From Acidobacteriota bacterium (lineage in GTDB: Bacteria > Acidobacteriota > JAAYUB01): DNA of 64,000 bases. Each line of letters begins with the position of its first letter. The first letter of the stretch is position 1. The notes beneath the pieces were generated by a model. The model searched no databases. It was given only the letters and a program-made list of their open reading frames with translations, and had not been told where the DNA came from. Shown piece by piece: positions 4,821 to 45,066 of the stretch. The DNA lies in assembly GCA_040768985.1 (NCBI GenBank), contig JAXGLX010000002.1, forward strand, positions 4,160,637 to 4,224,636, in the 5' to 3' direction. The position numbers and the translations under genes were made by a program.

Positions 4821-5411
4821 ATGTTGAAATTCTGTGCGCACGGACATCCGATGGAAGAGTGGATGACCGAGTGTCCGTACTGCGCCCGCACCGAAGACGG
4901 CGTGCAGAAACCGCTCGGCAGCTCCACCCCGCCTCCCGTTCCGGCCGCGGGCCCGACCGAACTCGGCCCCGGTTCGCCGCTGCGGGCGACGGTGGTGGAT
5001 GGCTATACGGCGCATTACCGGACGCCGCCGGGCGCGACGGTGGCGGATGGCGTGTCCTTCGACGCGACGCCCACACGGCCGCTCACGCCGCCCCCCGGAC
5101 GCCCGTCCGGCGGTCTCCCCCTGCTGGGCTGGCTGGTGGTCATGAACGGCCCGGCCAAGTTTCAGGACGTGCGTCTCGACCGCGAGCAGGTGGTGATCGG
5201 CTCAGACCCCGGCGCCGGGTTGCGGCTCGATGCGGCGGGGGTGGCGCCGTGCCACGGGCGGGTGGTCAAAGAGCGGGACGGCCTGTACCTCGAGGGGGTG
5301 GACGGAGCCGTGTTCGTCAACAACGGCGCCCGGCCGTCGCCCCGCCATCTGCTGGCGGACGAGGATCTGATCCGCATCGGCAGCGTCTACGTGAAATTCC
5401 GAAAATTGTGA
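4821..5411 (+). CDS. Zinc-ribbon plus FHA-domain protein with a divergent FHA
   Basis: N-terminal C..H..(x10)..CPYC zinc-ribbon-like motif, then a Pro-rich linker. The C-terminal FHA-like fold (VVIGSDPGAGLRLDAAGVAPCHGRVVKERDGLYLEGVDGAVFVNNGAR) lacks the canonical S-T-N-G phospho-threonine-contacting residues. Confidence 0.65.
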   Translation: MLKFCAHGHPMEEWMTECPYCARTEDGVQKPLGSSTPPPVPAAGPTELGPGSPLRATVVDGYTAHYRTPPGATVADGVSFDATPTRPLTPPPGRPSGGLPLLGWLVVMNGPAKFQDVRLDREQVVIGSDPGAGLRLDAAGVAPCHGRVVKERDGLYLEGVDGAVFVNNGARPSPRHLLADEDLIRIGSVYVKFRKL

Positions 5412-5424
5412 TCGGGGGCGTCTC

Positions 5425-7542
5425 ATGATCGGCCAAGTCATCGACCACTATAAGATCCTTGAAAAAATCGGCCAGGGCGGCATGGGCACGGTCTTCAAGG
5501 CGGTGGACATCAACCTCGACCGTATCGTCGCCATCAAGGTCCTGTCGAAGGAGCTGTCCCAGGAGGCCAGCCTGATCCAGCGGTTCCTCGCGGAGGCCAA
5601 GACCCAGGCCCAGCTCAACCACCCCAACGTGTGCACCCTCTACAATTTTTTCCGCCATCAGGACCAGTTGTACATGGTGATGGAATACATCGAGGGGATG
5701 AACCTGGAGCAGATGATCCGCCAGCGGGGAGCGATCCCCTTCCACGAAGCCGTGCCGCTTTTCCAGCAGGCGCTGTTCGGCCTGAGCCAGGCCCATCGGA
5801 TGGGCATCCTGCACCGGGACATCAAGCCGTCGAACATGATCGTGAACCGGCAGGGCATCGTCAAGGTCATGGACTTCGGCATCGCCCGGGTGATGGGCCA
5901 GTCGCGGCTCACCCAGACCGGCCTGCAGGTGGGCACCCTGTACTACATGTCGCCGGAGCAGATCCAGGGGAAGGAGACCGACTTCCGGTGCGACATCTAC
6001 GCGCTGGGCATCACGCTCTTCGAACTGCTCACCGGGACGGTGCCGTTCCGGGGGAGCACCGATTTCGAGATCATGCAGGCCCACGTGCGGACGCCGCCGC
6101 CCGCGCCCTCCAAAGTGCTGCCGCAGTTGCCTAAGGTGTTCGACCGGGTGGTCCTGCACGCCCTGGAAAAGGACCCGCGCGCCCGCTACCAGACCGTCGA
6201 GGATTTCTCGCAGGCGCTGGGCGCGGCGCTGCAGGAGGCCCTCCGCACGGCGCCGCCACCCCGCGCCACCGCCGCCTATGCCGCCACGGGCGCGGCGCCG
6301 CTGCGTCCGGCGGGGACACCGCCCCCGCCGCCGGGCACCCAGGCGTACGCTTCCGGAACGCAAGCCTGTCCGCCGGGCACCCAGGCCTACCCCGCCGGGA
6401 CGCAGGCGTATGCCGGGGGCACCCAGGCGTACCCGTCCGGCACCCAGGGCGTCCAGATGCCCGGCGCCACCGTTTTTGACTCACGGCCGGGTACCGGATA
6501 CGCCGCCGCGCGGCCGGACGTCGCCAAAAAGAAAATGCTGATCATCGGCGGCATTGCCGCCGCCGGATTGATCCTCGTGACGCTGACGATCGTGGTGCTG
6601 GCGGTGTTGCTCAAGCCGTCGCCCAGGACGCCGACCGCCGCGACCCCGGTGGCCGGCGGCGGCTCCAGCGGCACCCAGGCCCCGCCGGTGGCGCCCCCCG
6701 CGTCCCTGCCGGCCGCCAGCCCGTCATCGAGCCAGCCGGCCGGCACGCTCACGCTCCCCGTGCTCCCCGGTGGCGCGACGCAGCCGGACAAGGGGCGGAA
6801 AGATTCCAAGCCGCAGCCGGCGCCGCCGACTCCGCCGCCGGCGGAGGAGCCGCCCGATTCCGGCAAATGGGCAACCAAGGGCGATCATTCCGGATCGGGC
6901 GGACAAGCGCCCGTGGAAGATCCGCTGCAGGCGTTGTCCACCCAGGCCTACCAGGCGTATTCCGAGGGACGATTCATCGAACCGCCCGGGAACAACGTGC
7001 TGCAACTCACCGGGGAGATCCTCCGGCGCGATCCCGGCCACGCGTATGCCCTGCAGCTGCAGCAGGACGCCGTCTCCGTGGTCCACGGCCAGTTGCAGTC
7101 GCAGATCGACTCGGGCGATCTGGCGTCCGCCAAGCGCCTCTGCCGGCTGCTGATGCAGTTTTTTCCCGGTAACGGCGATTACCGGCAACTGATGAGCAAC
7201 CTGGAGAACGCGGAGCAGCAGGCCGCCGCCATGAGCGAGGCGCAGACGTTCCTCGTGGGCCACGACCACAGCGGCGACTTCACGCTGTTCTGCGTCGGCT
7301 ACCTGTCCATCTTCCCCGACCGGGTGGTCTATCGAACGATCCGCTCCATCGACGGCCGCACGGATGACTTCGAGGTGCCGCGCTCGGCCATCAAGGAATT
7401 CAAGACCAACCGGTTGCCCATCGGCATGTACCGGGCGTTCCATATCAAGCTCACGAACGGAAACAATTTCAATTTTGCCCACATCGATCAGAACGGCAAC
7501 GACATCGGCCCCGAGGCGGTGGTGTCGGCGTACGGCTATTGA
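5425..7542 (+). CDS. Receptor-type Hanks Ser/Thr protein kinase: cytoplasmic kinase domain, six G-T-Q-A-Y tandem repeats, one TM helix, and an extracytoplasmic Pro-rich region plus a helical/TPR-like and unknown C-terminal domain
   Basis: Glycine loop GQGGMGTVFKA, VAIK lysine, HRDIKPSNMI catalytic loop, DFGIAR, SPEQ. Repeats PGTQAYASGTQACPPGTQAYPAGTQAYAGGTQAYPSGTQG at aa 303-342. TM helix LIIGGIAAAGLILVTLTIVVLAVLL. Confidence 0.85.
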   Translation: MIGQVIDHYKILEKIGQGGMGTVFKAVDINLDRIVAIKVLSKELSQEASLIQRFLAEAKTQAQLNHPNVCTLYNFFRHQDQLYMVMEYIEGMNLEQMIRQRGAIPFHEAVPLFQQALFGLSQAHRMGILHRDIKPSNMIVNRQGIVKVMDFGIARVMGQSRLTQTGLQVGTLYYMSPEQIQGKETDFRCDIYALGITLFELLTGTVPFRGSTDFEIMQAHVRTPPPAPSKVLPQLPKVFDRVVLHALEKDPRARYQTVEDFSQALGAALQEALRTAPPPRATAAYAATGAAPLRPAGTPPPPPGTQAYASGTQACPPGTQAYPAGTQAYAGGTQAYPSGTQGVQMPGATVFDSRPGTGYAAARPDVAKKKMLIIGGIAAAGLILVTLTIVVLAVLLKPSPRTPTAATPVAGGGSSGTQAPPVAPPASLPAASPSSSQPAGTLTLPVLPGGATQPDKGRKDSKPQPAPPTPPPAEEPPDSGKWATKGDHSGSGGQAPVEDPLQALSTQAYQAYSEGRFIEPPGNNVLQLTGEILRRDPGHAYALQLQQDAVSVVHGQLQSQIDSGDLASAKRLCRLLMQFFPGNGDYRQLMSNLENAEQQAAAMSEAQTFLVGHDHSGDFTLFCVGYLSIFPDRVVYRTIRSIDGRTDDFEVPRSAIKEFKTNRLPIGMYRAFHIKLTNGNNFNFAHIDQNGNDIGPEAVVSAYGY
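6331..6451 (+). repeat. In-frame tandem 15-nt coding repeats (ggcacccaggcgtac-like) encoding six G-T-Q-A-Y units in the kinase juxtamembrane linker
   Basis: Repetition visible at both the DNA and protein level, with no frame disruption. Confidence 0.75.
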
Positions 7543-14090: not shown

Positions 14091-14702
14091 TCATTCACCG
14101 GCCGCGCCATCCGCGCGGAGGCGCAGGGCGCGGCGGTAATCGGCGGGCGTGTTGACGTTGAACAGCGCCCGGGTCCAGAACGGATCGGCGCCCACGTCGA
14201 TGATGCGGATCGGCACGGCGTCCCAAAAACTGATCATCCGGTGCCGCCCCTGTTCGATGGCCCGCTGGACGGCGGGCAGGCAGCCGCGCCGGTAGACGCC
14301 GAACAGCGGGTGGGCGCCGTCGGCGGCGCGCAGCACCGTCGCCTCCGCGCCGGCGGCCAGCCGCCAGAGCCGTCGGATGGCTTCCGGGCCGATGAAGGGC
14401 ATGTCCGCCGCGACCACCAGGCCGGCCGGCGCGGTCATCGCCTCCAGGCCCGTCCGCAATCCACCCAACGGACCGATGGGGCGCTCTTCGCGGATGAGTC
14501 GCACCCCGGGAAGCTCCGGTGGCGGGATGGCGTCGGGCAAACCCACGATCCAGGTTTCGGCCACGGTGCGGGTCAGGACAGCGGCGATGCGAGTCAGCAG
14601 GGTGCCCTCGTCCCACGGCAGACACAGCTTGCTGCGGCCCATGCGCCGGCTGACGCCTCCGGCCAGCACCAGTCCGGCGGCGGGCAACCGCTGGCCGTTC
14701 AT
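14091..14702 (-). CDS. mobA: Molybdenum cofactor guanylyltransferase MobA
   Basis: LVLAGGVSRRMG nucleotide-binding motif. The internal ATG (MNGQRLPAAG) gives a 4-nt ATGA overlap with fdhD. The upstream 94 codons of the track ORF are an Arg-rich artefact. Confidence 0.75.
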   Translation of the reverse strand: MNGQRLPAAGLVLAGGVSRRMGRSKLCLPWDEGTLLTRIAAVLTRTVAETWIVGLPDAIPPPELPGVRLIREERPIGPLGGLRTGLEAMTAPAGLVVAADMPFIGPEAIRRLWRLAAGAEATVLRAADGAHPLFGVYRRGCLPAVQRAIEQGRHRMISFWDAVPIRIIDVGADPFWTRALFNVNTPADYRRALRLRADGAAGE

Positions 14703-15511
14703 GACGGGCGGACCCGGTTCGGGTGGGTGTACACGTTGCACCGCTCCGCGCGGGCGAATCCCACCAGGGTGACGCCGTGGGCCTCGGCGATCTGGACGGC
14801 GCCGCTGGTGGGCGCCGACCGGGACACGAGCAGCGGGATTCCGGCGCGGATGGTCTTCATGACGATGTCGCTGCTCAGCCGGCCGGTGCTCACGAGCATG
14901 GCGTCGTCGCCGACGGGCCAGCGATTCCGGAGGGCGTGGCCGATGACCTTGTCTGCCGCGTTGTGCCGCCCGATGTCGTCGCAAATCCGCCGGAAATCCC
15001 CCGCCTGCCAGAGCCCGGCGGTGTGCACGCAGCCGGTGTCGCGGAACAGCGGCGAACTGCCGACCAGCCGCCCCACCGCGGCCAGGATCTCGGCGACCGG
15101 GTGGGTGGCCGCCGTGTGGAGCACCGGGAAGCAGGCGGACCAGAGGGGCGACACGCGCGACACGCTCCGTCCGCAGCCGGTGGTGAACGTGCGGACGGCG
15201 TCCGGGGTTTCCATCCGGGCCGGACCGGCCAGGGTGACGGAGACGGCGTGCAGGCGGGGGTTGACCGTGACTTCCCGGACGGTGGCCGGATCATCGAAGT
15301 AGCACTCGCAATATAAAAAGCCGAGCGCCAGCTCCTCGAGTTCCGCCGGCAGGGCCATCAGGCTGGCCGCCTCCGCGCCGTTGACCCAGATACTCACCCG
15401 CGCTTCCTCGACCAGCGGGTCACGCAGCACTTCAACGCCTTTGGCCTGATATCGGATAATCTCGCGCTCGTCCAATGGTGCGGACCTCCACGTGAATGGT
15501 AGCATCGCCAC
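14699..15511 (-). CDS. fdhD: Formate dehydrogenase accessory sulfurtransferase FdhD
   Basis: GRHNAADK motif and full-length FdhD-like sequence. The track start is GTG at 15511; an ATG lies 2 codons in. Confidence 0.8.
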   Translation of the reverse strand: MAMLPFTWRSAPLDEREIIRYQAKGVEVLRDPLVEEARVSIWVNGAEAASLMALPAELEELALGFLYCECYFDDPATVREVTVNPRLHAVSVTLAGPARMETPDAVRTFTTGCGRSVSRVSPLWSACFPVLHTAATHPVAEILAAVGRLVGSSPLFRDTGCVHTAGLWQAGDFRRICDDIGRHNAADKVIGHALRNRWPVGDDAMLVSTGRLSSDIVMKTIRAGIPLLVSRSAPTSGAVQIAEAHGVTLVGFARAERCNVYTHPNRVRPS

Positions 15512-15617: not shown

Positions 15618-17012
15618 ATGATGGAATGCCAAAACAATCTCTGCTGTGAGGGAAATAGCTTGAATACAACCGCACCGACTCCCAACCGCTGGCTGGTGGC
15701 CATCATGGGCACGCTGCTGATGGTCCTGCTGGGCACCGTCTATGCCTGGAGCTTCTTCCAGAAACCGCTCGTCAACACCTATAGCTGGAGCAACTCCCAG
15801 GTGATGTGGGCGTTCAATCTCGCCATCTGCTTTCTGGGCCTGGCCGCCGCCTGGGGCGGCATCAACCTGGCCAGGTTTGGCCCCACCAAGCTGGCCGTCA
15901 CCGGCGGCGTCCTGTTCGGCCTGGGGTACCTGATCGGCGGTTTCGCACTCAGTCAGCATTCGCTGTGGCTGCTGCTGCTCGGTTACGGCGTCATCGGCGG
16001 ATGCGGCCTCGGGCTCGGCTATGTCACGCCGGTGGCCACCGCGGCCAAGTGGTTCCCCGACAAGAAGGGGCTGGTGACCGGCATGGTGGTCATGGGTTTC
16101 GGCTTCGGCGCCCTGATCATGTCCAAGGTGTTCGCGCCTTTCCTGATGGATTTCACCGGCGGCAACCTGGTCCACGTCTTCCTTTACCTGGGGGTGGCGT
16201 TCCTGGTGCTGTGCGTGATCTTTGCGGCGTTCCTGAAGAACCCGCCGGCCGGTTACGTGCCGGCGGGCTACAATCCCCCGGGCGGCGCGGCCAAGGCCGC
16301 CGCCGACGCCGCGGCGCCCACCGCGCCCCTGTCCCGCTATCTGCTCTCGGGCAAGTTCATCATGATGTGGATCGTGTTCTTCTGCAATATCTGCGCCGGC
16401 ATCGCCGTGATCTCGCTGCAGTCGCCGCTGATGCAGGACATCGCGGCGAAGGCGGACAGCGCTCTCAATATCAAGGCACTGGAGGCCTCCGGTGCCTCCC
16501 CCGAGACCATCGCCGCGGCGGTGGCCTCCCTGGCCGCCATCGGCGCGACCCTGATCGCCATCAGTTCGCTGTTCAACGGATTCGGCCGGTTCCTGTGGGG
16601 CGGCCTGTCCGACAAGCTGGGCCGGACCAACGTGTTCCGCCTGCTGCTCGGCACCCAGCTCATCGCCTTCATCATCATGGTGTTCACCGGCAGCCCCTGG
16701 ATTTTCGGCATCCTGGTCTGCTACGTGCTGCTGTGCTACGGCGGCGGCTTCGGCACCATGCCGAGCTTCGTCACGGACGTATATGGCGCCAAGCTGATGC
16801 CCAACGTGTACGGTGTGATCCTGACGGCGTGGGCCGCCGGCGGCGTCGTCGGCCCGCAGATTTTCGCGCTCATCAAGGACAAGTTCGCCGAGAACGCGGC
16901 GACCTATTCGTTCTACACCGGCGCCGCCTTCCTCGCGGTCGGCCTCGTGTTTTCGCTGTTGCTGAACGACAACAAGATGACGCTCAAAGCCGAAGTCCCG
17001 AAATCAGCCTGA
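15618..17012 (+). CDS. MFS transporter, oxalate/formate antiporter (OFA) family
   Basis: N-terminal NRW motif (TPNRWLVAIMGTLLMV) and 12 predicted TM helices. The family assignment rests on the conserved N-terminus and its position next to the FDH genes. Confidence 0.75.
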   Translation: MMECQNNLCCEGNSLNTTAPTPNRWLVAIMGTLLMVLLGTVYAWSFFQKPLVNTYSWSNSQVMWAFNLAICFLGLAAAWGGINLARFGPTKLAVTGGVLFGLGYLIGGFALSQHSLWLLLLGYGVIGGCGLGLGYVTPVATAAKWFPDKKGLVTGMVVMGFGFGALIMSKVFAPFLMDFTGGNLVHVFLYLGVAFLVLCVIFAAFLKNPPAGYVPAGYNPPGGAAKAAADAAAPTAPLSRYLLSGKFIMMWIVFFCNICAGIAVISLQSPLMQDIAAKADSALNIKALEASGASPETIAAAVASLAAIGATLIAISSLFNGFGRFLWGGLSDKLGRTNVFRLLLGTQLIAFIIMVFTGSPWIFGILVCYVLLCYGGGFGTMPSFVTDVYGAKLMPNVYGVILTAWAAGGVVGPQIFALIKDKFAENAATYSFYTGAAFLAVGLVFSLLLNDNKMTLKAEVPKSA

Positions 17013-17057: not shown

Positions 17058-17073
17058 AGGAGCGTGTTGTGCC

Positions 17074-17460
17074 ATGGCGCAAGAAATTCTGATTGTCGAC
17101 GACGATCCGGATCTGGTCACGGTGGTCTCGATCGTCCTCAAGGCCGAAGGGTACGAAGTGAGTTCCGCCGGCAACCGGCAGGCGGCCAAGGAGCGGATCC
17201 TGCAGAAGCACCCCGACCTGATCCTGCTGGACGTGATGATGGACACTCAGACCGACGGATTCGACCTCGCCTACGAACTGCGGGACGATCCGGCCACGCG
17301 GGACATCCCCATCGTCATGCTGACGGCGATGTCCCAGTCGCCCGATTACGTGGAGACTTTCCAGCACATCACCGACCGGCCGTGGCCGGTGAACATCTTC
17401 CTGGAGAAGCCGATTCCGCCCAAGAAGCTCATCGAAACCGTCCGTCAAATCTTGAAATAG
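17074..17460 (+). CDS. Stand-alone response-regulator receiver (CheY-like) protein
   Basis: AAGGAG RBS. ILIVDDDPD...LILLDVMMD...IPIVMLTA with the conserved Asp pocket and phospho-acceptor Asp. No output domain. Confidence 0.8.
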   Translation: MAQEILIVDDDPDLVTVVSIVLKAEGYEVSSAGNRQAAKERILQKHPDLILLDVMMDTQTDGFDLAYELRDDPATRDIPIVMLTAMSQSPDYVETFQHITDRPWPVNIFLEKPIPPKKLIETVRQILK

Positions 17461-17471
17461 TGGATAGAACC

Positions 17472-20189
17472 ATGCCAACCATCAAAATCACGCTCAACGG
17501 CCGGGAGGTGGAGTGCCGGCGTGGGCAGACCATCCTCGATGTGGCCAAGGCGCAGGGGGTGCGCATCCCGACGCTCTGCTACCACCCCCAGGTCAGCCGC
17601 ACGGGCGCCTGCCGGATCTGCCTCGTCCGCGTCAACAACACGATGTTCAAGACCGCCTGCACCGAGCCCGTGGCCGACGGGATGAAAATCGTGACGGCGG
17701 ACCCGGAGATCACCGCCATGCGCCGGGGGATTCTCGAGTTCCTCCTGGCGGAAGGCGATCACAACTGCCTGTACTGCGAGGCCAACGGCGGCTGCGAACT
17801 CCAGGCGCTGTGCCACGAGCATGGGCTGGACACGCCGCCCCCGGCGGGGCTGCCCCGCAACGCCCGCACCCGCGACGTCTCCTCCAGCGAGGGGCTGCGG
17901 CGGGAGGAAAACCGCTGCGTGCTCTGCGGCCGCTGCGTCAAGGCCTGCGGCGAGATCCAGATGAACCGGGTGTGGGACTTCGCCGGCCGCGGCAGCCACG
18001 CCCACCTGACCACCGGCGTCACCGACGTGCTGGGCGAATCCGACTGCGTCCAGTGCGGCCAGTGCGTGCAACTCTGCCCCACCGGCGCGCTGTCGTTCCA
18101 GACGGTGCTCGGCCGCGGCCAGGCGTGGGAGCTGACCAGGCAGTCCAGCATCTGCATCTACTGCGGGGTCGGCTGCAAGATCGATTTCTTCACCAACCGG
18201 GACGGCCTGCTGGTCAAGGCCGAGGGCGCGTTGGACGGCCCCAACGAGGGGCACCTGTGCGTCAAGGGCCGCTTCGGGTTCGACTTCGTCCAGAGCCCCA
18301 AGCGCCTGACCCAGCCGCTGGTCCGCAAAGACGGCGAACTGGTCCCCGCCACGTGGGACGAGGCGCTGGACCGCGTCGCCGGCGCGTTCGGCCGGATCAA
18401 GGCCGACCACGGGCCCGACGCCGTCATGGCATTCACCTCGGCCAAGTGCACCAACGAGGAAAACTACATCCTGCAGAAATTCATGCGCGCGGTGATCGGC
18501 ACCAACAATGTCGATCACTGCGCCCGGCTTTGACACAGCTCCACGGTCGCCGGTCTGGCGGCCACACTGGGCTCCGGGGCCATGACCAATTCGATCCGGG
18601 AGATCCCGCTCTCGGAGGCGTTCCTGATCATTGGTTCCAACACCACGGAAAACCACCCCGTCATCGGGGCCATGATCAAGAAGGCGGTCATCCGCGACGG
18701 CAAGAGACTCGTCGTCGCCGACCCCCGCCGGATCGAGCTGGCCCGCTACGCCGACGTCTTCCTGCAGATTCGGCCGGGCACCAACATCGCCCTGCTCAAC
18801 GGCCTGATGCACGTCATCCTGCGCGAGGGGCTGCATGACGCCGAGTATGTGAACACCCGCTGCGAGGGGTTCGCCGAGCTCGAGCGCGTCCTGCAGAAGT
18901 ACACCCCCGAGCACGTCGCCGGCATCTGCGGCCTGACGGATCCGGAGCAGATCGTCACCGCCGCCCGCCTGCTGGCGGCGGCCAAACCGATGGCGGTCTA
19001 CTACTGCATGGGCATCACCCAGTTCAAGTCCGGCGTCAACGGAGTGAAATCCGTTTCCAACATCCAGATGCTGCTGGGCAACATCGGCGTGCCCGGGGGC
19101 GGCGTCAATCCGCTGCGCGGCCAGAGCAATGTCCAGGGGGCGTGCGACATGGGCGGCCTGCCCAACGTCTTCACCGCCTACCAGCCGGTGACCAACCCCG
19201 AGGCGCGGCAGAAGTTCGAGCAGGCCTGGGGCGTGAACGGACTGCCCGACAAGCCCGGCCTGACCATCGTCGAATCGATGAACGCGGCCATCACGGGGCA
19301 GGTGCGGGCGCTCTACGTGCTGGGCGAGAACCCCGTCCTGTCCGATCCCAACCAGCACCACGTCATCGAGGCGCTGGAGAAGCTCGACTGCCTCGTCGTC
19401 CAGGACATCACCCTGACGGAGACGGCGCAGTACGCCGATGTCGTCCTGCCGGGTTACGCCTTCCTCGAGAAGGAGGGCACCGTGTCCAACACCGAGCGGC
19501 GCGTGCAGCTGATGCACCGGGTGGTCCAGCCCGCCGGCGACGCCCGCGAGGACTGGTGGATCATCCAGGCGGTGGCCAACCGGCTGGGCGCGAACTGGAA
19601 CTACGCCGGCGCCGAGGCGATCTTCGAGGAGATCCGCCGGGTGACGCCGTCGTACGCCGGCTTGACCTACGCCCGGATCGATCAGGAACTGCTCCAGTGG
19701 CCCTGCCCCACGCCGGGCCACCCGGGCACCCAGTTCCTGCACAAGGACCGCTTCGCCCGCGGGCTGGGACAACTGGCGGCCATTGATTACACGCCGCCCG
19801 CCGAGGAGGTCGATCCCGAGTATCCGCTGGCGCTGACCACGGGCCGGCTGCTGGAGCATTTCCACACCGGCACGATGAGCCGCAATTCCAGAATCCTGAA
19901 TGAAATCGTGTCGGAAGCCTACGTGGAAATCCACCCGGTCGACGCCCAGAACCTGGAGATCGCCGACGGGGAGATTGTCTCCGTATCCACCCGCCGGGGC
20001 AGTATCCGGCTGAAGGCCAAAATCAAGCCGGAGATCAAACCCGGCGTGGTGTTCATCCCGTTCCATTTCGCCGAGGCGTGCGCCAACGTGCTGACCATCG
20101 ACGCGCTGGATCCCCTCTGCAAGATCCCGGAGTTCAAGGTGTGCGCCTGCAAGATGGAAAAGGTTTATCCGCTGGGGGGTGAGCGATGA
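17472..20189 (+). CDS. fdhA: Formate dehydrogenase alpha subunit (NuoG/FdsA-like: N-terminal 2Fe-2S, 4Fe-4S clusters and molybdopterin domains), a selenoprotein with an in-frame UGA at 18531-18533
   Basis: Track ORFs 17064-18533 and 18582-20189 are in the same frame, separated only by TGA. The flanking sequence NNVDHCARL-[TGA]-HSSTVAGLAATLGSGAMTNSI aligns with the E. coli FdhF selenocysteine site CARV-U-HGPSVAGL. 2Fe-2S Cys pattern (C..ACRIC); 4Fe-4S motifs (CVLCGRCVKAC, CVQCGQCVQLCP); molybdopterin oxidoreductase signature (ICIYCGVGC). ATGA overlap with the downstream gene. Confidence 0.85.
18531..18533 (+). other. In-frame UGA read as selenocysteine
   Basis: Positional match to the catalytic Sec/Cys of Mo/W formate dehydrogenases. 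The open frame continues for 550 codons downstream. Confidence 0.8.
18534..18575 (+). promoter_or_regulatory. SECIS-like mRNA hairpin (bacterial selenocysteine insertion sequence)
   Basis: GGUCGCC-GGUCU-GGCGGCC at 18545-18563, starting 11 nt after the UGA. 7-bp stem including one G-U pair; the apical loop contains GGUC as in the E. coli fdhF SECIS. Confidence 0.55.
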
Positions 20190-22021
20190 GCGCGACGACC
20201 GACATCCGCGAAGTGGTGGCGAAATACGGCCGCCGGCGGGAGCAACTGATGCTGATCCTGCGGGAGCTGGAGACCCGGTCCGGCTGCAACTGCCTCGATC
20301 CCGCCACGCTGCGCGAGGTGGCCGAGGAGATGAACCTGCCCGCCAGCGCCATCGCCGGTTTTGTGGATTTCTACACCATGTTCCGGACCACCCCGCGGGC
20401 CCGCTACATGATCCGGGTCTGCAAGTCGACGCCCTGCCACACCGCCGGCGCCATCGACGTGTTCGAGTCGCTGCGCAAGCTGCTGGGCATCGGCGAGGGC
20501 GAAGCCACCCCCGACGGCCTCTTTTACCTGGAGCGGTGCGAGTGCCTGGGGATCTGCTCGGTAGCCCCGGCCATGATGGTCAACTACGACCTGCACGGCA
20601 ACCTGACCCGGCGGCGGCTGGCCCGGATCATCACGTCGTACCGGGAATCGGCGGCGGCCGACGGCCGGGGATCCGGCCGCGAGACGGCGGCGGCAGCCAC
20701 GATCATTGATGACGCGCGGCAGACCCGCCGGCTGCTGGCCGATATCGGCCGCGTCAACCCCGCGCGGATCGCCAGCTACCTCAAGCACGGCGGCTACGCC
20801 GCCTTGCGCAAAGCGGTCGCCACGACGCCGGCGGATGTCATCGCCGTGGTGAAGGATTCGGGGCTGCGCGGCCGCGGCGGCGCCGGCTTTCCCGCCGGCC
20901 TGAAGTGGTCGTTCGTGGTGAAGGGCCCCATGCAGAAATACGTGATCTGCAACGCCGACGAGGGCGAGCCCGGCACCTTCAAGGACCGGGTACTGATGGA
21001 GGGCAATCCCCACCTGTTGCTGGAGGGGATGGCCATCTGCGGCTTCGCCACGGGAGCCACCATCGGCTACATCTACGTCCGCGGCGAGTACCGGCGCTCC
21101 ATCGACACGCTGCAGCACGCGATCGACGAAGCCCGGACCAGGGGCTGCCTTGGGGCCAACCTGTTCGGTTCGGAGTTCAGCTTCGACGTCTTCATCAAGG
21201 AGGGCGGCGGCGCTTACGTCTGCGGCGAGGAGACCTCGCTGATCAACTCAATGGAGGGGCTGCGTGGCTATCCGCGCTTCAAGCCGCCCTTCCCCGGCCA
21301 GGCCGGTTTCCAGAGCCTCCCCTCCACGGTCAACAACGTCGAGACGCTGATGTCGGTCCCCCTGATCGTCGAGCGGGGCGCCGACTGGTTCAAGGAAGTG
21401 GGACCGGTCTCGTGCCCCGGCACGAAGCTGTTCTGCCTCTCCGGCCGCCTGAACCGGACCGGCCTGGTGGAACTGCCCATGGGCGCCACCCTGCGCGAGA
21501 TCATCGACGTGTACGGGCAGGGGATCCGCGACGGCCACGCGTTCAAGTTCGCCCAGGTCGGCGGCAGCTCCGGCGGGATCCTGACCGCCGAGCTGCTGGA
21601 TATGCCCCTGGACATCGACACGCCGATGAAGCAGGGCGTCACCTTGGGATCGGGCGTGGTGCTGGTGTGCGACGAAACGACCTGTCCGGTGGATTTCCTG
21701 CTGCAGACCCTGGCCTTCTTCGAGCACGAGTCGTGCGGCCAGTGCGTCCCCTGCCGGGTGGGCACCGCCCAGCTCCACCACCACGCCCGCCGGCTGGCGG
21801 AGCGACGGGCGGCGCCGGCGGAACTGGACCAGATGCTGGAGAAGGCCCAACTGATGAAGAAGGCCTCGTTCTGCGCCCTGGGCCAGTCACCAATCATCCC
21901 GCTGACCACCCTGTTGAAGGCGTTCCGCGGCGAGTTTGAAGACCACTGCCGACCCGGGCACGCCTGCCCGGCCTGTGACCGGTCGCTGGCCCAGTACTAT
22001 CGGTCCGGTCGGACTCACTGA
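20186..22021 (+). CDS. Formate dehydrogenase beta/gamma fusion: NuoE-like 2Fe-2S thioredoxin-fold module fused to a NuoF-like FMN/NAD(H)-binding 4Fe-4S subunit (FdsG-FdsB type)
   Basis: N-terminal RVCKSTPCHTAG...CLGICSVAP (NuoE family). C-terminal GLRGRGGAGFPAGLKW, YVICNADEGEPGTFKDR and CGQCVPCR (NuoF family). Confidence 0.85.
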   Translation: MSATTDIREVVAKYGRRREQLMLILRELETRSGCNCLDPATLREVAEEMNLPASAIAGFVDFYTMFRTTPRARYMIRVCKSTPCHTAGAIDVFESLRKLLGIGEGEATPDGLFYLERCECLGICSVAPAMMVNYDLHGNLTRRRLARIITSYRESAAADGRGSGRETAAAATIIDDARQTRRLLADIGRVNPARIASYLKHGGYAALRKAVATTPADVIAVVKDSGLRGRGGAGFPAGLKWSFVVKGPMQKYVICNADEGEPGTFKDRVLMEGNPHLLLEGMAICGFATGATIGYIYVRGEYRRSIDTLQHAIDEARTRGCLGANLFGSEFSFDVFIKEGGGAYVCGEETSLINSMEGLRGYPRFKPPFPGQAGFQSLPSTVNNVETLMSVPLIVERGADWFKEVGPVSCPGTKLFCLSGRLNRTGLVELPMGATLREIIDVYGQGIRDGHAFKFAQVGGSSGGILTAELLDMPLDIDTPMKQGVTLGSGVVLVCDETTCPVDFLLQTLAFFEHESCGQCVPCRVGTAQLHHHARRLAERRAAPAELDQMLEKAQLMKKASFCALGQSPIIPLTTLLKAFRGEFEDHCRPGHACPACDRSLAQYYRSGRTH

Positions 22022-22041: not shown

Positions 22042-22509
22042 TCATCCGCCGGCGGTCTGGGGGAAGGCGGTGTTGCTGTACAGGTACTCCACCTTCTCCT
22101 TGTGCCGGAGCTCCTGCGCGGCGAATTCGGTGAGCAGCTGTTTGACTTCGCCCTCCGGCTGGAGGGCCGCCAGCCCCTGGTAGAACTTGTGCGCGTTCCA
22201 CTCGCGGTGGGCCGCCACCAGGTAGACCTCGGTGGTGCGCAGGTCTTTCTGGATGTCCGGCTTGTCGTTGTACTGGGCGACGCCGTAATCAATCACCTGG
22301 TCGGTGGCCAGGCCATCAGCCGCCATCCGGCCCTCGAGGTAGCTGACGAGAAACTCCTTGTGGCGCAGTTCCTCGGCGGCCAGGAACCGTAGGGTCTCGC
22401 GGGCGGTTTCGTCCTGGACGACGTCGTGCAGTTCGGTGTAGAAGGTGTAGGCGTCTTCCTCGTTCTTGATGGCGCGTTCGAGGACGGTCTTGAGTTGCTG
22501 GTCTGACAT
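22042..22509 (-). CDS. Rubrerythrin/ferritin-like diiron protein
   Basis: 155 aa starting at MSDQQLKTV with an AGGAGG RBS 8 nt upstream. Four-helix diiron E..H motifs (EEDAYTFY, AAEELRHKE, REWNAHKFY, AAQELRHKEK). Only this 3' part of the 743-aa track ORF is real. Confidence 0.75.
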   Translation of the reverse strand: MSDQQLKTVLERAIKNEEDAYTFYTELHDVVQDETARETLRFLAAEELRHKEFLVSYLEGRMAADGLATDQVIDYGVAQYNDKPDIQKDLRTTEVYLVAAHREWNAHKFYQGLAALQPEGEVKQLLTEFAAQELRHKEKVEYLYSNTAFPQTAGG

Positions 22510-22668: not shown

Positions 22669-24018
22669 ATGCGTAATCCCCTCATCATCGCCGGGCTGTG
22701 GTTGTGCGTCGCCGCCGGCTGCGTGTTGGGCCAGGGCGCCTCCGTGCAGGACGAGCTCCAGGCGCTCAAGAAGGAAAACATGGAGCTGCGGGAGAAAATC
22801 CGCCAGCTCGAGCTGGCTGTCGCCGAGGTGCGGCAGTTGGCACTCCGCGAGCCGGCGTCCGCCCCGGTTCCGGCCCCTGTCGCGGCTCCCGCTTCGACGC
22901 AGGCCGCCGTCGCTAAAGCTGACGAAGCGGCGGCCAAAAAGAAACCCACGGTGGAACTGTACGGCTTCGTCAAGCTGGACGCCGCCTACGACACCGCCCG
23001 GACCGACGTGGGCGACTTCGCCCGGTGGGTGCTGCCCGAGGGCCCCGGCGGCAAGGACGATGAGTTCAACATGACCGCCAACCAGACCCGGGTGGGCCTC
23101 AACATCAACGGGCCGGCCACCGGCTCGCTCAAGACCACCGGCAACGTCGAGATCGACTTCTACAGCCTGGAGGGCGGCGAGAACAAGCCCCAGCCCCAGC
23201 TGCGGCACGCGTTCGTGAAACTGGAGTGGCCGGAGCACGACTTCAGCCTGCTGGCCGGCCAGACCTCGGACGTGATCGCCCCGCTGCTGCCCGACACCAT
23301 CAACTACACCGTCATGTGGTGGACCGGCAATCCGGGCTACCGCCGGCCGCAGTTCCGGCTGACCAAGGGATTCGACCTGGGCGGCGACGCCAGGCTGCAG
23401 CTTCAGGGCGCGTTCGTCCGGACCATCGGGCACACCTCCGGTTACGATCCGGGCGACGGCGGCGAGGACGCCGGCTTCCCCACCGTCCAGAGCCGTCTGG
23501 CGTTGACGCTGCCCTTCGGCGAGAAGCGCAAGGCAACGGTGGGCGTGTACGGCCACTGGGGCCAGGAGGAGTACGACCTGGACGCCGCCGGCAACAGCGT
23601 GAACCTCGACACGTATTCGTGGGGTCTGGACGCTCAGCTGCCGCTGGCCAAGGGCGTGACGCTGCAGGGCGAGTTCTGGCGCGGCGCCAATGTCGACACG
23701 TACCTGGCGGCCGTGGGGCAGGGCTTCAACAAAGCCCGGCTCAACGAGATCCGCAGCATCGGCGGCTGGGCGGCGGTGGGTTTCGGTCCGTGGAAGGGCT
23801 GGAAGTTCAACCTGGGCGGCGCCGTGGACGACCCGGTCAACCGCGACCTGGCCTCCGGCAACCGCTCCCGCAACATGGCGCTGTTCGGCAATTTCTATTA
23901 CAGCATCACCAGCGCGGTCCAGGTGGGCATGGAAATCTCGCCGTGGTGGACCCGCTACATCGACCTGAACGAAGGCCGGAGCGTCCGCGCCCAGGGCACG
24001 TTCATCTACCGCTTCTGA
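22669..24018 (+). CDS. Outer-membrane porin with an N-terminal coiled coil (DcaP-like architecture)
   Basis: AAGGAG RBS. Signal peptide. Heptad coiled coil (QDELQALKKENMELREKIRQLELAVAEVRQLA), an Ala/Pro linker, then a beta-barrel region ending ...GTFIYRF (C-terminal aromatic). Confidence 0.55.
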   Translation: MRNPLIIAGLWLCVAAGCVLGQGASVQDELQALKKENMELREKIRQLELAVAEVRQLALREPASAPVPAPVAAPASTQAAVAKADEAAAKKKPTVELYGFVKLDAAYDTARTDVGDFARWVLPEGPGGKDDEFNMTANQTRVGLNINGPATGSLKTTGNVEIDFYSLEGGENKPQPQLRHAFVKLEWPEHDFSLLAGQTSDVIAPLLPDTINYTVMWWTGNPGYRRPQFRLTKGFDLGGDARLQLQGAFVRTIGHTSGYDPGDGGEDAGFPTVQSRLALTLPFGEKRKATVGVYGHWGQEEYDLDAAGNSVNLDTYSWGLDAQLPLAKGVTLQGEFWRGANVDTYLAAVGQGFNKARLNEIRSIGGWAAVGFGPWKGWKFNLGGAVDDPVNRDLASGNRSRNMALFGNFYYSITSAVQVGMEISPWWTRYIDLNEGRSVRAQGTFIYRF

Positions 24019-28351: not shown

Positions 28352-30385
28352 TCAGTTCTGCGGACGGGCGGCGGCCTTCAGCTCCTCGAACAGGGCGGCG
28401 GCGGAGGGATAGCGGAGCTGGCGGTCTTTCTCGAGGCATTTCAGGACGATTCGCTCCAGTTCGACGGGGAGCGACGGGTTGTAGGACCGGATCGGCACGG
28501 GCGGGGTGACCAGATGGTGGTGCAGGATGCCGTCCACGGGGTAGGGCAGCATGCCGGTGAGCATCTCGTGAAAGGTGATCCCGAACGAATAGATGTCGCA
28601 GCGCTCGTCTACGGGTGAGCCCTGCAACTGCTCCGGCGAGATGTACTTGGGGGTGCCCATGACCACGTCGGACGATTGGCCGGGCAGTTCGTGGAAGAGG
28701 CGGGCGATGCCGAAATCGGTGAGCTTGACGATCTTGTCGTCGCTGAGCATGATGTTGGCCGGCTTGATGTCCTGGTGGATGACGCCGTTGCGGTGAGCAT
28801 AGGACAAGGCCTGCAGCATGTGCCGGGCGACGTATAGGGACAGCTTCAGCGACAGGGCGCCTTTGACCTCGAGCAGCCGCTCGACGGTGGTGCCGCGGAT
28901 GAACTCCATCACGATGAAGTAGGCGTTATCGGCCTTGATGATGTCGTGGATGGCCACGATGTTGGGATGGTTAAGCTTGGCGATGGCCTTGGCCTCCGAA
29001 AAGAAGGCCTGCAGGCGGGCCGGATCCCGGGAGACCGTCACGGGCAGCTTTTTCAGGGCGACGGTGCGGTCGAGGATCTTGTCGCGCGCGCTGTAGACGA
29101 TGCCGGCGCCGCCGCGGCCGATTTCCTCCAGCTCGGTGTAGCGCTCCCCCAGCCGGATCAGAAAATCGTCCGACAGCCCGGCGTCCTTGGCGGCGGCATC
29201 CTGGTCCAGCATCGCTTTCATCGAATCGGGCTCGCTGGTCTTGTGGTCGATCGCGTCGATACGCTCGTCGACGTTCATGAAAAACGGCCGGAGACTCTGC
29301 ACCCGCGCGAACACGTCGCGGGCATGCTTGAGCCGGCCGAGTTTCTCGAGACAGAGGCCCATCTGAAAAAATTCTTCCAGGTTGGCGTCGGCGGGTTTCA
29401 CCCGCTTGAAGTACTCGACGTAGTGTTTCAGCGATTCCTGGTAGCGCTCGCTGTGGAAGTGAAGCCGGGCCATGATCACCAGGCTGTCGGTGTACTGCTT
29501 GTGATCGGCGGTGATCCTGGACAGGATTTTCAGCGCCGCCTCGGTCTCCCCCGCGGCCAGCAGCAATTCCGCCGCCCGGATGAAGTTGCCCCCCTGCGTG
29601 TAGTGCTGCACCGCTCCGGGAATGTCCCGGGCGGTTTCGCAGAAGGCGGCCGCCTTCAGCGGCAGACCCAACTGGTCGGCCAGCTGGACGATCTTCTGGC
29701 AGCGCTCCCGGAGCTGCTCCGGCGGATAGAGACTCTGGAGGTCGCGCAGGTGCGTTTCGTGGCACGCCAGCGCGCTCGCCTTGTCGTCGGCCTTCTGATA
29801 GTACTTGGCGGCCTTTTCCCATTCCTGCCGCTGGTAGAAGTACTGGCCCGCCGCGGCGTACGCCCGGCGCGCCTGTTCCGGCTGGCCCATCTCCTCGTAC
29901 AGCTCGCCGGCGCGGGCGAGGCTTTCGTCGCCCAGGCGCTCCAGCATGCGCGCCGCCATGTGGTACTGGCGGCGCTGGCGGTAGATTTCCGCCGCCCGGT
30001 CCCACCGGCCGATCTGCTTGTACACGCGCAGGGCCTGACGAAGTCTGCCTTCCCGCATCAGCGTGTCCGCTTGCAGCTCGAGCGGCAGGTGACGGAGGTG
30101 CTCGTCCCGACCCGACAGGAGGACGTATTCCAGATAGAAACAGATGGCGGTCAACACCAGCGATCCGATGAACAGCAGGCTCGGGTGAACCGATTCGCGC
30201 AATTGGATGAGCCAGAGGGCGGCCCCGGCCAGGGTCGACCGGCTGAGCACTCCGAGAAAGGAATCGAAAATGTCCCTTAACAGCGCGACGGAGAATGCCA
30301 GCGTGATGCTGTACAGCAACAGGAAGATCGACACCATGAACAGGATGGTGACGACGACTACCAATAGGTGATGCTTGAATCTCAT
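28352..30385 (-). CDS. Ser/Thr protein kinase with N-terminal membrane anchor (2 TM helices), central TPR repeats and a C-terminal Hanks kinase domain
   Basis: TM segments ([19 protein letters not shown]; [19 protein letters not shown]). TPR-like helical repeats. Kinase motifs [45 protein letters not shown]. Confidence 0.85.
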
Positions 30386-30413
30386 CGGTTCATCACGCCG
30401 GACTGTGCGGCGG

Positions 30414-31058
30414 TCAGTATTTCAGCCCGGTCAGCAGTCGGATGTAGCCGCGCATATAATACCATGCCCGAAAATCGGCGAACCGGTAATCGGCGAGAAT
30501 GGTGCGCCAGTCGCGGGCGATGAAATCCCGGGCCGGCTCGCATTCGAACCGTTGGAACAGCTGCCGCGCCAGGGGATTGAAGGTGGCCAGGTCGCGTTCG
30601 TTCCAGTCGAGGATGCACAGGCAGCTGTCCTCGGCCAAAAACTCGCCGGCGTTCTGGATGACCAGAATGCGCTGGTATTGTTCGAGTCCGTGCAGGACAA
30701 AGGAAATCAGGACCCGGTCGAAACGCCCGGCGAGGTCAAGCGGACCCTCGATGCGCCGGTCCAGCAGTTCCAGGTTGGGAAATTTCGCGGCCCGTCGCCG
30801 GAAACGGTCCTGCATCTCCGGGCCGATCTCGACGCCGACGATCCGGCCCGCGGGTCCGGTCCGCCGGGCCATCAGGGCGGCCAACCGGCCGGTTCCCGCG
30901 CCCAGGTCGAGGATCCGCTCGCCGGGCCGGATGGCCAGGTCGTCCATCACCCGCTGCAGGAAACGACGGTAGTAGCCGGCGCAGGCCAGGTCCAGCAACC
31001 GGTCGTAATGGCGGGCCGCGAAGCCGGTGAGTTCAATTTTGGGTTTTCGCGTCACCAT
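30414..31058 (-). CDS. Class I SAM-dependent methyltransferase
   Basis: Motif I ILDLGAGTGRLAALMA. The internal ATG at 31058 is used because the track start (TTG at 31112) overlaps tRNA-Ala. Confidence 0.65.
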   Translation of the reverse strand: MVTRKPKIELTGFAARHYDRLLDLACAGYYRRFLQRVMDDLAIRPGERILDLGAGTGRLAALMARRTGPAGRIVGVEIGPEMQDRFRRRAAKFPNLELLDRRIEGPLDLAGRFDRVLISFVLHGLEQYQRILVIQNAGEFLAEDSCLCILDWNERDLATFNPLARQLFQRFECEPARDFIARDWRTILADYRFADFRAWYYMRGYIRLLTGLKY

Positions 31059-42190: not shown

Positions 42191-43255
42191 ATGAAGAAAA
42201 ACGACGATCAGCGGTTGCTCCAGTTTCCCTCCGTCTTCAATCTGGAACCCGGCGGCAAGGCCGAGGTCAAGCCCGTTGAAGATGAGAACGCCCCCGAATG
42301 GCGCCGGGAAGTCAGCCGCAAGGTTGAAGAACATCGCAAGATGAAGGAGCTCCAGGACAACCTGGACATCCTCCGGCGGATCGACCCGCCCGGTGACGAC
42401 GCCGCAATTGCGGATCATGAGAAGACCCGGCTCGACGAGCGGTTCACCGCCACCCCGTCCGCGGCGCCGGCTGTGGGGGCCGCCATCCGGGACGAGCGCC
42501 TTCGGCAGGCGCTGCAGACGCCCAAGCCGCGGGACGGCGCGGCCCGCACCCACGTGGACAGCGACCTGAAGGAGAAGCTGGCGGATCAGCACCGCCAGTT
42601 GTTCAAGGATGCCGTTGTCGAGACGGACGAGGACACCACCGACTCCATCACCCAGCCCATCGCCTTCGACGAGTTGGACCTGGCCAAGAACCCCGCGCTC
42701 ATCTTCGAGGAAGAACCGGCGGCGGCGGAAGCGGAGGTCGCGGAGGAGCCCGTGTCCAGGTCCGAGTACGACCTGCCGCTGGGCGAACTGCTCAGCCGGT
42801 ACGAGCAGCGCGGCTCCCGGCCCCGGAAGGCGGCCGCGCCAACAGCCGATCGCACCTTGCTGGTCAGCCGGTTTCTGGCCGGCCTCATTGATTTCGTGCT
42901 GGTGACGGGGCTGGCAGTGGCGCTGCTGGCCATCGTTGCCTGGCTCACCGGCGGAGGGCTGTTCTCCCCGCGGATGGGCGCGCTGCTGGGCGGACTGTTC
43001 GTGCTGCTGCATTTCATCTACAGCTTCTACTTCCTTTTTCTGGGCGGCCAGACACCCGGCATGGCCATGGTGGGCCTCCAGGTGGTCCGAGCCGGTGACC
43101 GCGAGCTGCCGCCGCGGGCGATCCTGGTGCGCACCACCATCTACCTCCTGGCCGTCGCCTGCGCGGGCATCGGCCTGATCTGGGGCGTCTTCGACCGGGA
43201 AGCCAAGTGCTGGCAGGACATCTTGTCCGATTCCCACGTCACCCGGGTCGCCTGA
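42191..43255 (+). CDS. RDD-family membrane protein with a long acidic N-terminal region
   Basis: C-terminal RDD signature (R..AGLIDFVLV...LLHFIYSFYFLFLGGQTPGM...VVRAGD) and 3 TM helices. N-terminal 220 aa acidic and low-complexity. Confidence 0.6.
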   Translation: MKKNDDQRLLQFPSVFNLEPGGKAEVKPVEDENAPEWRREVSRKVEEHRKMKELQDNLDILRRIDPPGDDAAIADHEKTRLDERFTATPSAAPAVGAAIRDERLRQALQTPKPRDGAARTHVDSDLKEKLADQHRQLFKDAVVETDEDTTDSITQPIAFDELDLAKNPALIFEEEPAAAEAEVAEEPVSRSEYDLPLGELLSRYEQRGSRPRKAAAPTADRTLLVSRFLAGLIDFVLVTGLAVALLAIVAWLTGGGLFSPRMGALLGGLFVLLHFIYSFYFLFLGGQTPGMAMVGLQVVRAGDRELPPRAILVRTTIYLLAVACAGIGLIWGVFDREAKCWQDILSDSHVTRVA

Positions 43256-44967: not shown

Positions 44968-45066
44968 CCCGCCGGTCCTGCCAGCCGACGACCCGTGAAA
45001 ATGAAACGACCGGGCGCGGGGCCCGGTCGGGTGGTCGTTGGGCTCAGGAGACGAGCGGGAGGAGGA

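Follow-up and report, generated by a model that had tools for sequence, protein, structure and literature searches.

A formate dehydrogenase gene annotated in two parts in an uncultured acidobacterium is very probably one intact gene with a selenocysteine codon and a SECIS hairpin

FdhA, the catalytic (alpha) subunit of formate dehydrogenase (FDH), is more widespread than any other bacterial selenoprotein (PMC1794560; PMC13188914); it is present in 67 of 75 genomes that use selenocysteine (Sec), and selenoproteins have been listed in Acidobacteria (PMC1794560). In bacteria, the selenocysteine insertion sequence (SECIS) lies directly 3' of the UGA codon, with 16-37 nucleotides (nt) to its apical loop (PMC10778597). 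Here we describe the fdhA gene found in a 64,000-nt stretch (the window) of the genome of Acidobacteriota bacterium (GenBank assembly GCA_040768985.1, contig JAXGLX010000002.1, positions 4,160,637 to 4,224,636 of the forward strand), where an in-frame TGA divides the gene into two open reading frames (ORFs). Comparisons with homologous sites make it very probable that fdhA is a single intact gene, whose codon 354, a UGA, would be recoded as selenocysteine by means of a SECIS hairpin at 18545-18563. The site is that of an ordinary selenocysteine FDH with a canonical bacterial SECIS, an arrangement that is well known and holds nothing conceptually new. The elements of the site are given below in window coordinates, all on the forward (+) strand, and nucleotides are counted with the U of the UGA as nt 1.

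17472-20189, +: fdhA, formate dehydrogenase catalytic (alpha) subunit, 905 codons with one in-frame UGA
18531-18533, +: UGA codon 354, probably read as selenocysteine (Mo/W ligand), from the alignment with Sec- and Cys-containing homologues
18528-18587, +: 60-nt SECIS context matched by covariance models (Rfam RF01989 and our own model R1)
18545-18563, +: SECIS upper stem-loop with a 7-bp stem (GGUCGCC/GGCGGCC) and the loop GGUCU, from fold, conservation and covariation
18545-18551, +: 5' arm of the stem, GGUCGCC, nt 15-21
18552-18556, +: apical loop GGUCU, nt 22-26, the presumed SelB contact, conserved in TGA-type sites
18557-18563, +: 3' arm of the stem, GGCGGCC, nt 27-33

The two ORFs, 17064-18533 (which ends at the TGA) and 18582-20189, lie in the identical frame, and translation of 17064-20189 yielded a single protein interrupted by one internal stop only. 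The likely start is the ATG at 17472 and the real stop is the TGA at 20187-20189; the TGA at 18531-18533 is codon 354, beyond which fdhA has no additional stops or frameshifts. The G+C content at third codon positions (GC3) was 0.92 for fdhA in a window of 66.6% G+C, and because it was 0.91 in the part 3' of the TGA, the coding signal is unbroken across that codon. When all six frames were scanned for in-frame stops, requiring 60 stop-free codons with coding-type composition on each side, nowhere in the 64 kb except at the TGA of 18531-18533 did an in-frame stop have a coding signal on both sides, and no other selenoprotein gene candidate of this kind was detected in the window.

The identity of the protein was supported by profile and structure matches along its length. 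The Pfam domains Fer2_4, NADH-G_4Fe-4S_3, 4Fe-4S domains, Molybdop_Fe4S4, Molybdopterin and Molydop_binding follow one another in this order, so that a NuoG-like 2Fe-2S/4Fe-4S N-terminal region precedes a molybdopterin domain of the bis-molybdopterin guanine dinucleotide (bis-MGD) type. The NCBIfam model TIGR01591 (formate dehydrogenase subunit alpha) matched with 839.2 bits (cutoff 666.25) over profile positions 2-671 of 672. The best PDB match of the catalytic domain was 9t1s_L, an F420-dependent FDH (E = 9e-225), and residues 3-895 aligned with the NAD-linked tungsten FDH of Methylorubrum (7e5z, 7vw6). Identity with FdhH of Escherichia coli, the product of fdhF, was 41% over 670 aligned residues, and residues C228, C231, C235, C263, K265, U354, H355 and R549 aligned with C8, C11, C15, C42, K44, U140, H141 and R333 of FdhH.

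The peptide spanning residue 354 reads CARL-U-HSSTVAGLAATLGSGAMTNSIR. Its context, CARL-U-HSSTVAGL, corresponds to CARV-U-HGPSVAGL in fdhF of E. coli K-12, where the UGA stands at the aligned codon; the non-standard residue X of 9t1s_L (HCARLXHSATV), which is Sec, aligned with the window TGA, and so did the Cys of 7e5z and 7vw6 (HCTRLCH in 7e5z). An earlier sequence-only reading of the window had claimed that the two ORF halves share one frame and that the TGA falls exactly at the catalytic Cys/Sec position, to be checked by alignment with Sec- and Cys-containing homologues. Both claims held: the read-through is an uninterrupted 905 codons, and the Sec and Cys residues of the homologues (U140 of FdhH, the Sec of 9t1s_L, the Cys of 7e5z) fall on the same column as UGA 354.

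Compared with these described systems, the locus shares the UGA column, the near-identical peptide CAR[VL]-U-H..[ST]VAGL and all catalytic and 4Fe-4S residues with E. coli fdhF, as well as the start of the stem at nt 15 and the identical positions of the loop nucleotides G22, G23, U24 and C25. The two hairpins differ in that U17 is bulged in fdhF and an A-U pair closes its 4-nt GGUC loop, whereas the window has a U17-G31 pair and a 5-nt GGUCU loop closed by C-G. FdhH also lacks the N-terminal NuoG-like Fe-S extension carried by the window protein, and in E. coli it pairs with hydrogenase 3, not with a NuoEF diaphorase. Chain L of 9t1s shares the Sec residue at the aligned position; however, it has 674 residues, no NuoG-like extension and a link to coenzyme F420 instead of a NuoEF module. 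The soluble, NAD-linked enzymes of the FdsABG/FoDH1 type (Rhodobacter capsulatus 6tg9, Methylorubrum 7e5z/7vw6) have the same alpha-subunit architecture and NuoE- and NuoF-like partner modules, although the solved enzymes have Cys as the metal ligand where the window has the UGA, and in the window NuoE and NuoF are fused. The Rfam family RF01989 (SECIS_3) matched at full length across the UGA, the stem and the (A/G)GUCU loop, but its consensus reads as an FdnG-type peptide (U-H-G-P-T-V-A-S-L), and its outer stem is unsupported in the subfamily of the window gene.

The hairpin at 18545-18563 is as the sequence-only reading had described it, with a 7-bp stem and a GGUCU apical loop starting 11 nt downstream of the TGA. 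One of the seven pairs is a U-G wobble, the stem begins exactly 11 nt past the UGA, and the distance from the UGA to the loop is 18 nt, inside the 16-37 nt bacterial range. Folded alone, the hairpin had an energy of -13.7 kcal/mol (z = -2.3). Since the energy of a single sequence is uninformative at 67% G+C, comparative tests were used. Homologous sites were collected from metagenome contigs of the closest relatives, three contigs with the closest Cys-type proteins and 80 loci (one genome per species). In the column of UGA 354, TGA was present in 47 distinct homologous sites and TGC or TGT in 40 others; these TGA-type and Cys-type sets span many phyla and mostly encode the same VAGL peptide. 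Their hairpin features were distributed as follows.

Loop GGUCU: 46 of 47 TGA-type sites, 4 of 40 Cys-type sites
In-register stem of at least 5 bp: 46 of 47 TGA-type sites, 3 of 40 Cys-type sites
Loop GGUCU together with a stem of at least 5 bp: 45 of 47 TGA-type sites, 1 of 40 Cys-type sites (Fisher p = 4e-21)
Gly codon GGT: 46 of 47 TGA-type sites, 10 of 40 Cys-type sites
Leu codon CTG: 47 of 47 TGA-type sites, 9 of 40 Cys-type sites

Loop and stem were thus tied to the TGA over the 87 distinct sites (Fisher p about 1e-19 to 1e-21). In the window, the GGUCU loop uses the rare Gly codon GGT, which accounts for 10% of the Gly codons of this organism. This comparison of Sec-type with Cys-type sites is the decisive evidence that the hairpin exceeds what chance would give.

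Some individual sites departed from the general pattern. The sole TGA-type site of the 47 with a different loop (GGGCU, lacking the conserved U24) was L074:20868-20927, in which the 7-bp stem is intact; this site could be either a SECIS variant or a copy in decay. A Cys-type FdhA (TGT) from Syntrophorhabdus sp. PtaU1.Bin058 (GCA_002067975.1, L014:11054-11113) had a 6-bp stem and a GGUCU loop, and appears to be a fossil SECIS left after a recent Sec-to-Cys conversion, consistent with the report that such conversions took place mainly in FdhA and SelD (PMC13188914). Two fdhA paralogues within about 10 kb of each other were found in L074 (9454 and 20871), L083 (3668 and 11087), L094 (4099 and 14090) and L040 (3944 and 7251). 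Three of these genomes had two Sec-type copies, and L040 had one Sec-type copy beside one Cys-type copy, possibly a selenium-dependent isoenzyme pair.

Covariation within the alignments pointed in the same direction. The stem positions were paired in 90.6% of the cells of the TGA-type alignment, compared with 60.4% in the Cys-type control, and pairing fell to 21-60% when the register of the TGA-type alignment was slid. The observed covariation was reached by none of 500 shuffles, and double changes were present in 38 cells. At the pair nt18/nt30, whose partners are the third positions of the Val codon and of the codon two after Leu, and whose changes are mostly synonymous, the TGA-type sites had CG (n = 24), GC (n = 19), UA (n = 2), AU (n = 1) and GU (n = 1), with none unpaired; the same pair was unpaired in 21 of the 40 Cys-type sites. 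RNAalifold independently found the six inner pairs, which are conserved across phyla, and the seventh pair, nt15/nt33, was unpaired in 28 of the 47 TGA-type sequences. An extended lower stem, either like that of Rfam SECIS_3 or as in the 42-nt structure given by RNAfold, found no support, as RNAalifold kept only the six upper pairs.

Our own covariance model, R1, was built from 42 Sec-type sites with the acidobacterial clade left out. It matched the window site with 75.1 bits (E = 1e-17), and the second-best match in the 64 kb searched had 15 bits. Cys-type sites scored 30-60 bits, except for the L014 site described above (72 bits). In a search of 301 nt, RF01989 matched 18528-18586 over model positions 1-59 of 59, with 53.5 bits (E = 7e-12). 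The window site is the SECIS of another FdhA subfamily, related to RF01989 but not filed under it. The SECIS of E. coli fdhF (L097:2394-2453, - strand) scored 35.9 bits with R1, under many of the Cys-type sites; therefore, such models are governed mainly by coding-sequence context, and a SECIS model made for one FdhA subfamily performs poorly on another.

Selection on the gene was examined among its relatives, the nearest named relative genome being 'Acidobacteria bacterium Go_SlDig_bin_198'. All the close relatives, with proteins 85-93% identical, kept the TGA and the almost invariant 33 nt after it, while the flanking synonymous sites varied. The ratio of nonsynonymous to synonymous substitution rates (dN/dS) was about 0.1-0.2 in both the N-terminal and the C-terminal parts in seven pairwise comparisons. 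Over the 16 codons that separate the TGA from the next ATG, dN was 0 to 0.03 in the seven relatives, and dS was a quarter to half of the gene-wide value, a reduction expected if an RNA structure adds constraint. The gene is neither a pseudogene nor a split gene, because the TGA is conserved and purifying selection is equal on both halves. The caution given earlier, that the look of a pseudogene or frameshift at this TGA is misleading, proved sound, as the TGA and the hairpin were shared by every acidobacterial relative and by dozens of further lineages.

Several results weigh against the selenocysteine interpretation. The minimum free energies (MFE) of 18531-18590 and 18531-18580 were no better than those of shuffled sequences (z = -0.44 and +0.40, respectively), and the MFE structure of the 60-nt segment 18531-18590 did not contain the hairpin. 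Folding of that segment was a check proposed earlier; the favourable energy of -13.7 kcal/mol belongs to the isolated hairpin, and the energy of the whole segment was ordinary. The codons for Val-Ala-Gly-Leu-Ala-Ala (GUN GCN GGN CUN GCN GCN) are close to self-complementary, and the peptide VAGLAA by itself predisposes to a hairpin; in random synonymous recodings that left the peptide unchanged and followed the codon usage of the window organism, a stem of at least 6 bp arose in about 26%, the GGUCU loop in 10%, and both jointly in 2.5%. The window by itself thus gives weak to moderate evidence that the hairpin exceeds chance. The RF01989 score of 53.5 bits lies below the gathering score of 63, and no match was obtained in the whole-window search at the gathering threshold. 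Neither the window (ARAGORN and Rfam) nor 46 related loci (ARAGORN) had a tRNA-Sec, and no selA, selB or selD was found in the window or in the flanks of the 46 related loci. The search for SelA, SelB and SelD covered 20 window ORFs (fdh neighbourhood and gaps) plus fdhA with NCBIfam, the other ORFs by eye, and the loci by motif scans, the regular expressions used for the motifs being a weak test. From the long-term upkeep of the UGA, the SECIS and the intact downstream half, we infer that selA, selB, selC and selD lie elsewhere in the genome.

The alternatives to selenocysteine insertion differ in what they make of the TGA. That the UGA and its SECIS are something other than a plain Sec site is quite unlikely; under this heading fall decoding by an allo-tRNA or a tRNA(Sec)-like tRNA(Cys) (cf. 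PMC5389517) and a selenium-sensing switch between a 99-kDa enzyme and a 353-residue Fe-S protein. The more specific proposal, that the UGA and hairpin are recoded with cysteine or another residue by a selC* tRNA(Cys) or an allo-tRNA with a UCA anticodon, so that a Sec-type gene gives a Cys-type enzyme, was considered very unlikely. It draws on the facts that selC* tRNA(Cys) can act as an opal suppressor and that allo-tRNAs are frequent in Acidobacteria and may act as nonsense suppressors (PMC5389517), and also on the sel genes not being seen in the window or flanks and the inserted residue being deduced indirectly. However, selC* has been found in Firmicutes, Thermodesulfobacteria, Nitrospirae and Proteobacteria, not in Acidobacteria (PMC5389517), no unusual tRNA was found in the window, and the hairpin agrees exactly with E. 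coli fdhF in its SelB-type loop and its register, in an element conserved across many phyla. Reassignment of UGA to a sense codon throughout the genome (e.g. Trp or Gly, as in genetic codes 4 and 25), to which practically no probability was given, is refuted by the stop codons of the window itself: because TGA terminates 25 of the 35 window genes, fdhA included, it is not reassigned, and only one coding-flanked in-frame stop was present in the 64 kb.

The two remaining alternatives deny that the TGA is translated at all. If it were a true stop, fdhA would be a pseudogene, or the TGA an assembly or sequencing error from TGC or TGT, and the two coding sequences (CDSs) of 353 and 535 residues given by gene callers and public annotation would be taken at face value. 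The same TGA was nevertheless present in independent assemblies of this organism and in all its relatives, among 47 distinct sites, and the downstream half keeps its GC3, has no further stops or frameshifts, evolves at the same dN/dS as the upstream half and shows the near absence of amino acid change reported above for the 16 codons from TGA to ATG. This explanation is extremely improbable and has in effect already been refuted. Just as hard to believe is a split enzyme, in which translation would restart at ATG 18582 and the 353-residue and 535-residue proteins would come together with no residue to occupy the Sec/Cys position. ORF callers do use this ATG, 16 codons past the TGA, but it encodes the conserved Met of the motif GSGAMTN, which unsplit Cys-type homologues also have. 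Translation would moreover skip the catalytic U/C-His pair and the HSSTVAGLAATLGSGA segment, yet their amino acids are conserved with synonymous changes, and the association of hairpin and TGA would be left unexplained.

With selenocysteine insertion as the preferred explanation, the steps at this site would be those of the known bacterial system. The mRNA hairpin of 18545-18563 would form as the ribosome nears UGA 354; SelB carrying Sec-tRNA(Sec) would presumably bind it, compete with release factor 2 and bring its residue, presumably selenocysteine, to the UGA. The selenol of residue 354 would then ligate the Mo or W of the bis-MGD cofactor beside His355 and Arg549. The product is most probably a cytoplasmic NAD(H)-linked FDH dependent on Mo or W, with NAD as the presumed acceptor, which would work with the NuoE-NuoF fusion encoded directly downstream.

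The genes around fdhA in the window were the following.

14091-14702, -: mobA-like molybdenum cofactor guanylyltransferase, matched by MobA models, all below cutoff
14699-15511, -: fdhD, formate dehydrogenase accessory sulfurtransferase (TIGR00129, 184.7 bits, cutoff 140.9)
15618-17012, +: major facilitator superfamily (MFS) transporter of the oxalate/formate antiporter / lactate transporter group (NF049980, 340 bits; TIGR00890, 187 bits), syntenic in relatives
17074-17460, +: stand-alone response-regulator receiver of 128 residues with no output domain, from receiver-domain matches
20186-22021, +: NuoE-NuoF fusion of 611 residues (NCBIfam nuoF_fam, 489 bits; nuoE_fam, 117 bits)
22042-22509, -: rubrerythrin-like gene, after the fdh genes
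22669-24018, +: protein of 449 residues with a signal-peptide-like N-terminus and no family match

Gene order was conserved in the acidobacterial relatives, with the mobA-like gene and fdhD on the - strand, divergent from the genes for the MFS transporter, the receiver, FdhA and the NuoE-NuoF fusion on the + strand. The fusion combines a 2Fe-2S thioredoxin-like domain with an FMN/NAD(H)-binding 51-kDa module; there is a 4-nt overlap between its start and the stop of fdhA, and it followed fdhA in the relatives wherever the contig reached past fdhA. It is the diaphorase partner of FdhA. For the mobA-like gene, the best match was the MobA/MobB model NF011056 (E = 7e-31), TIGR02665 gave 90.6 bits (E = 1.3e-25, cutoff 151.85), and PF12804 was found in the syntenic loci. 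The MFS transporter is a possible formate carrier. Between it and fdhA sits the receiver gene, and PF00072 was found at that place in all the acidobacterial relatives.

The rubrerythrin-like gene and the 449-residue protein, which may be a porin, had counterparts in the closest relatives (L001, L010 and L098). Further away in the window, two long antiparallel ORFs at 43099-44967 (+, 623 codons) and 43141-45066 (-, 642 codons) both had high GC3, and high G+C may have produced the pair as a mirror-ORF artefact. Two large Ser/Thr protein kinase genes were also noted, one at 5395-7542 (+) whose linker has low-complexity repeats rich in Pro/Thr/Ala (GTQAY motifs), and the other at 28352-30421 (-) with tetratricopeptide (TPR) repeats.

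In all the public assemblies examined with both parts on a contig (L001-L013 and L098-L106), fdhA was called as two CDSs, of 353 residues and 535 or 540 residues. For two cluster members the NCBI names were '2Fe-2S iron-sulfur cluster-binding protein' (HOT00561.1) and 'molybdopterin-dependent oxidoreductase' (HOT01662.1), and one JGI call was 'YjgC'. Among the public entries examined for fdhA of the window organism and its relatives, none was seen with a selenoprotein annotation.

The set of 47 Sec-type and 40 Cys-type sites shows that constraint at the RNA level is cleanly separable from constraint at the protein level. The host is an uncultured acidobacterium repeatedly recovered from metagenomes, and the practical value of the finding lies in annotation: the mis-split gene would hide from metabolic reconstructions an intact, Sec-dependent and probably highly active FDH. 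The finding also predicts that the window organism needs selenium and has selA, selB, selC and selD.

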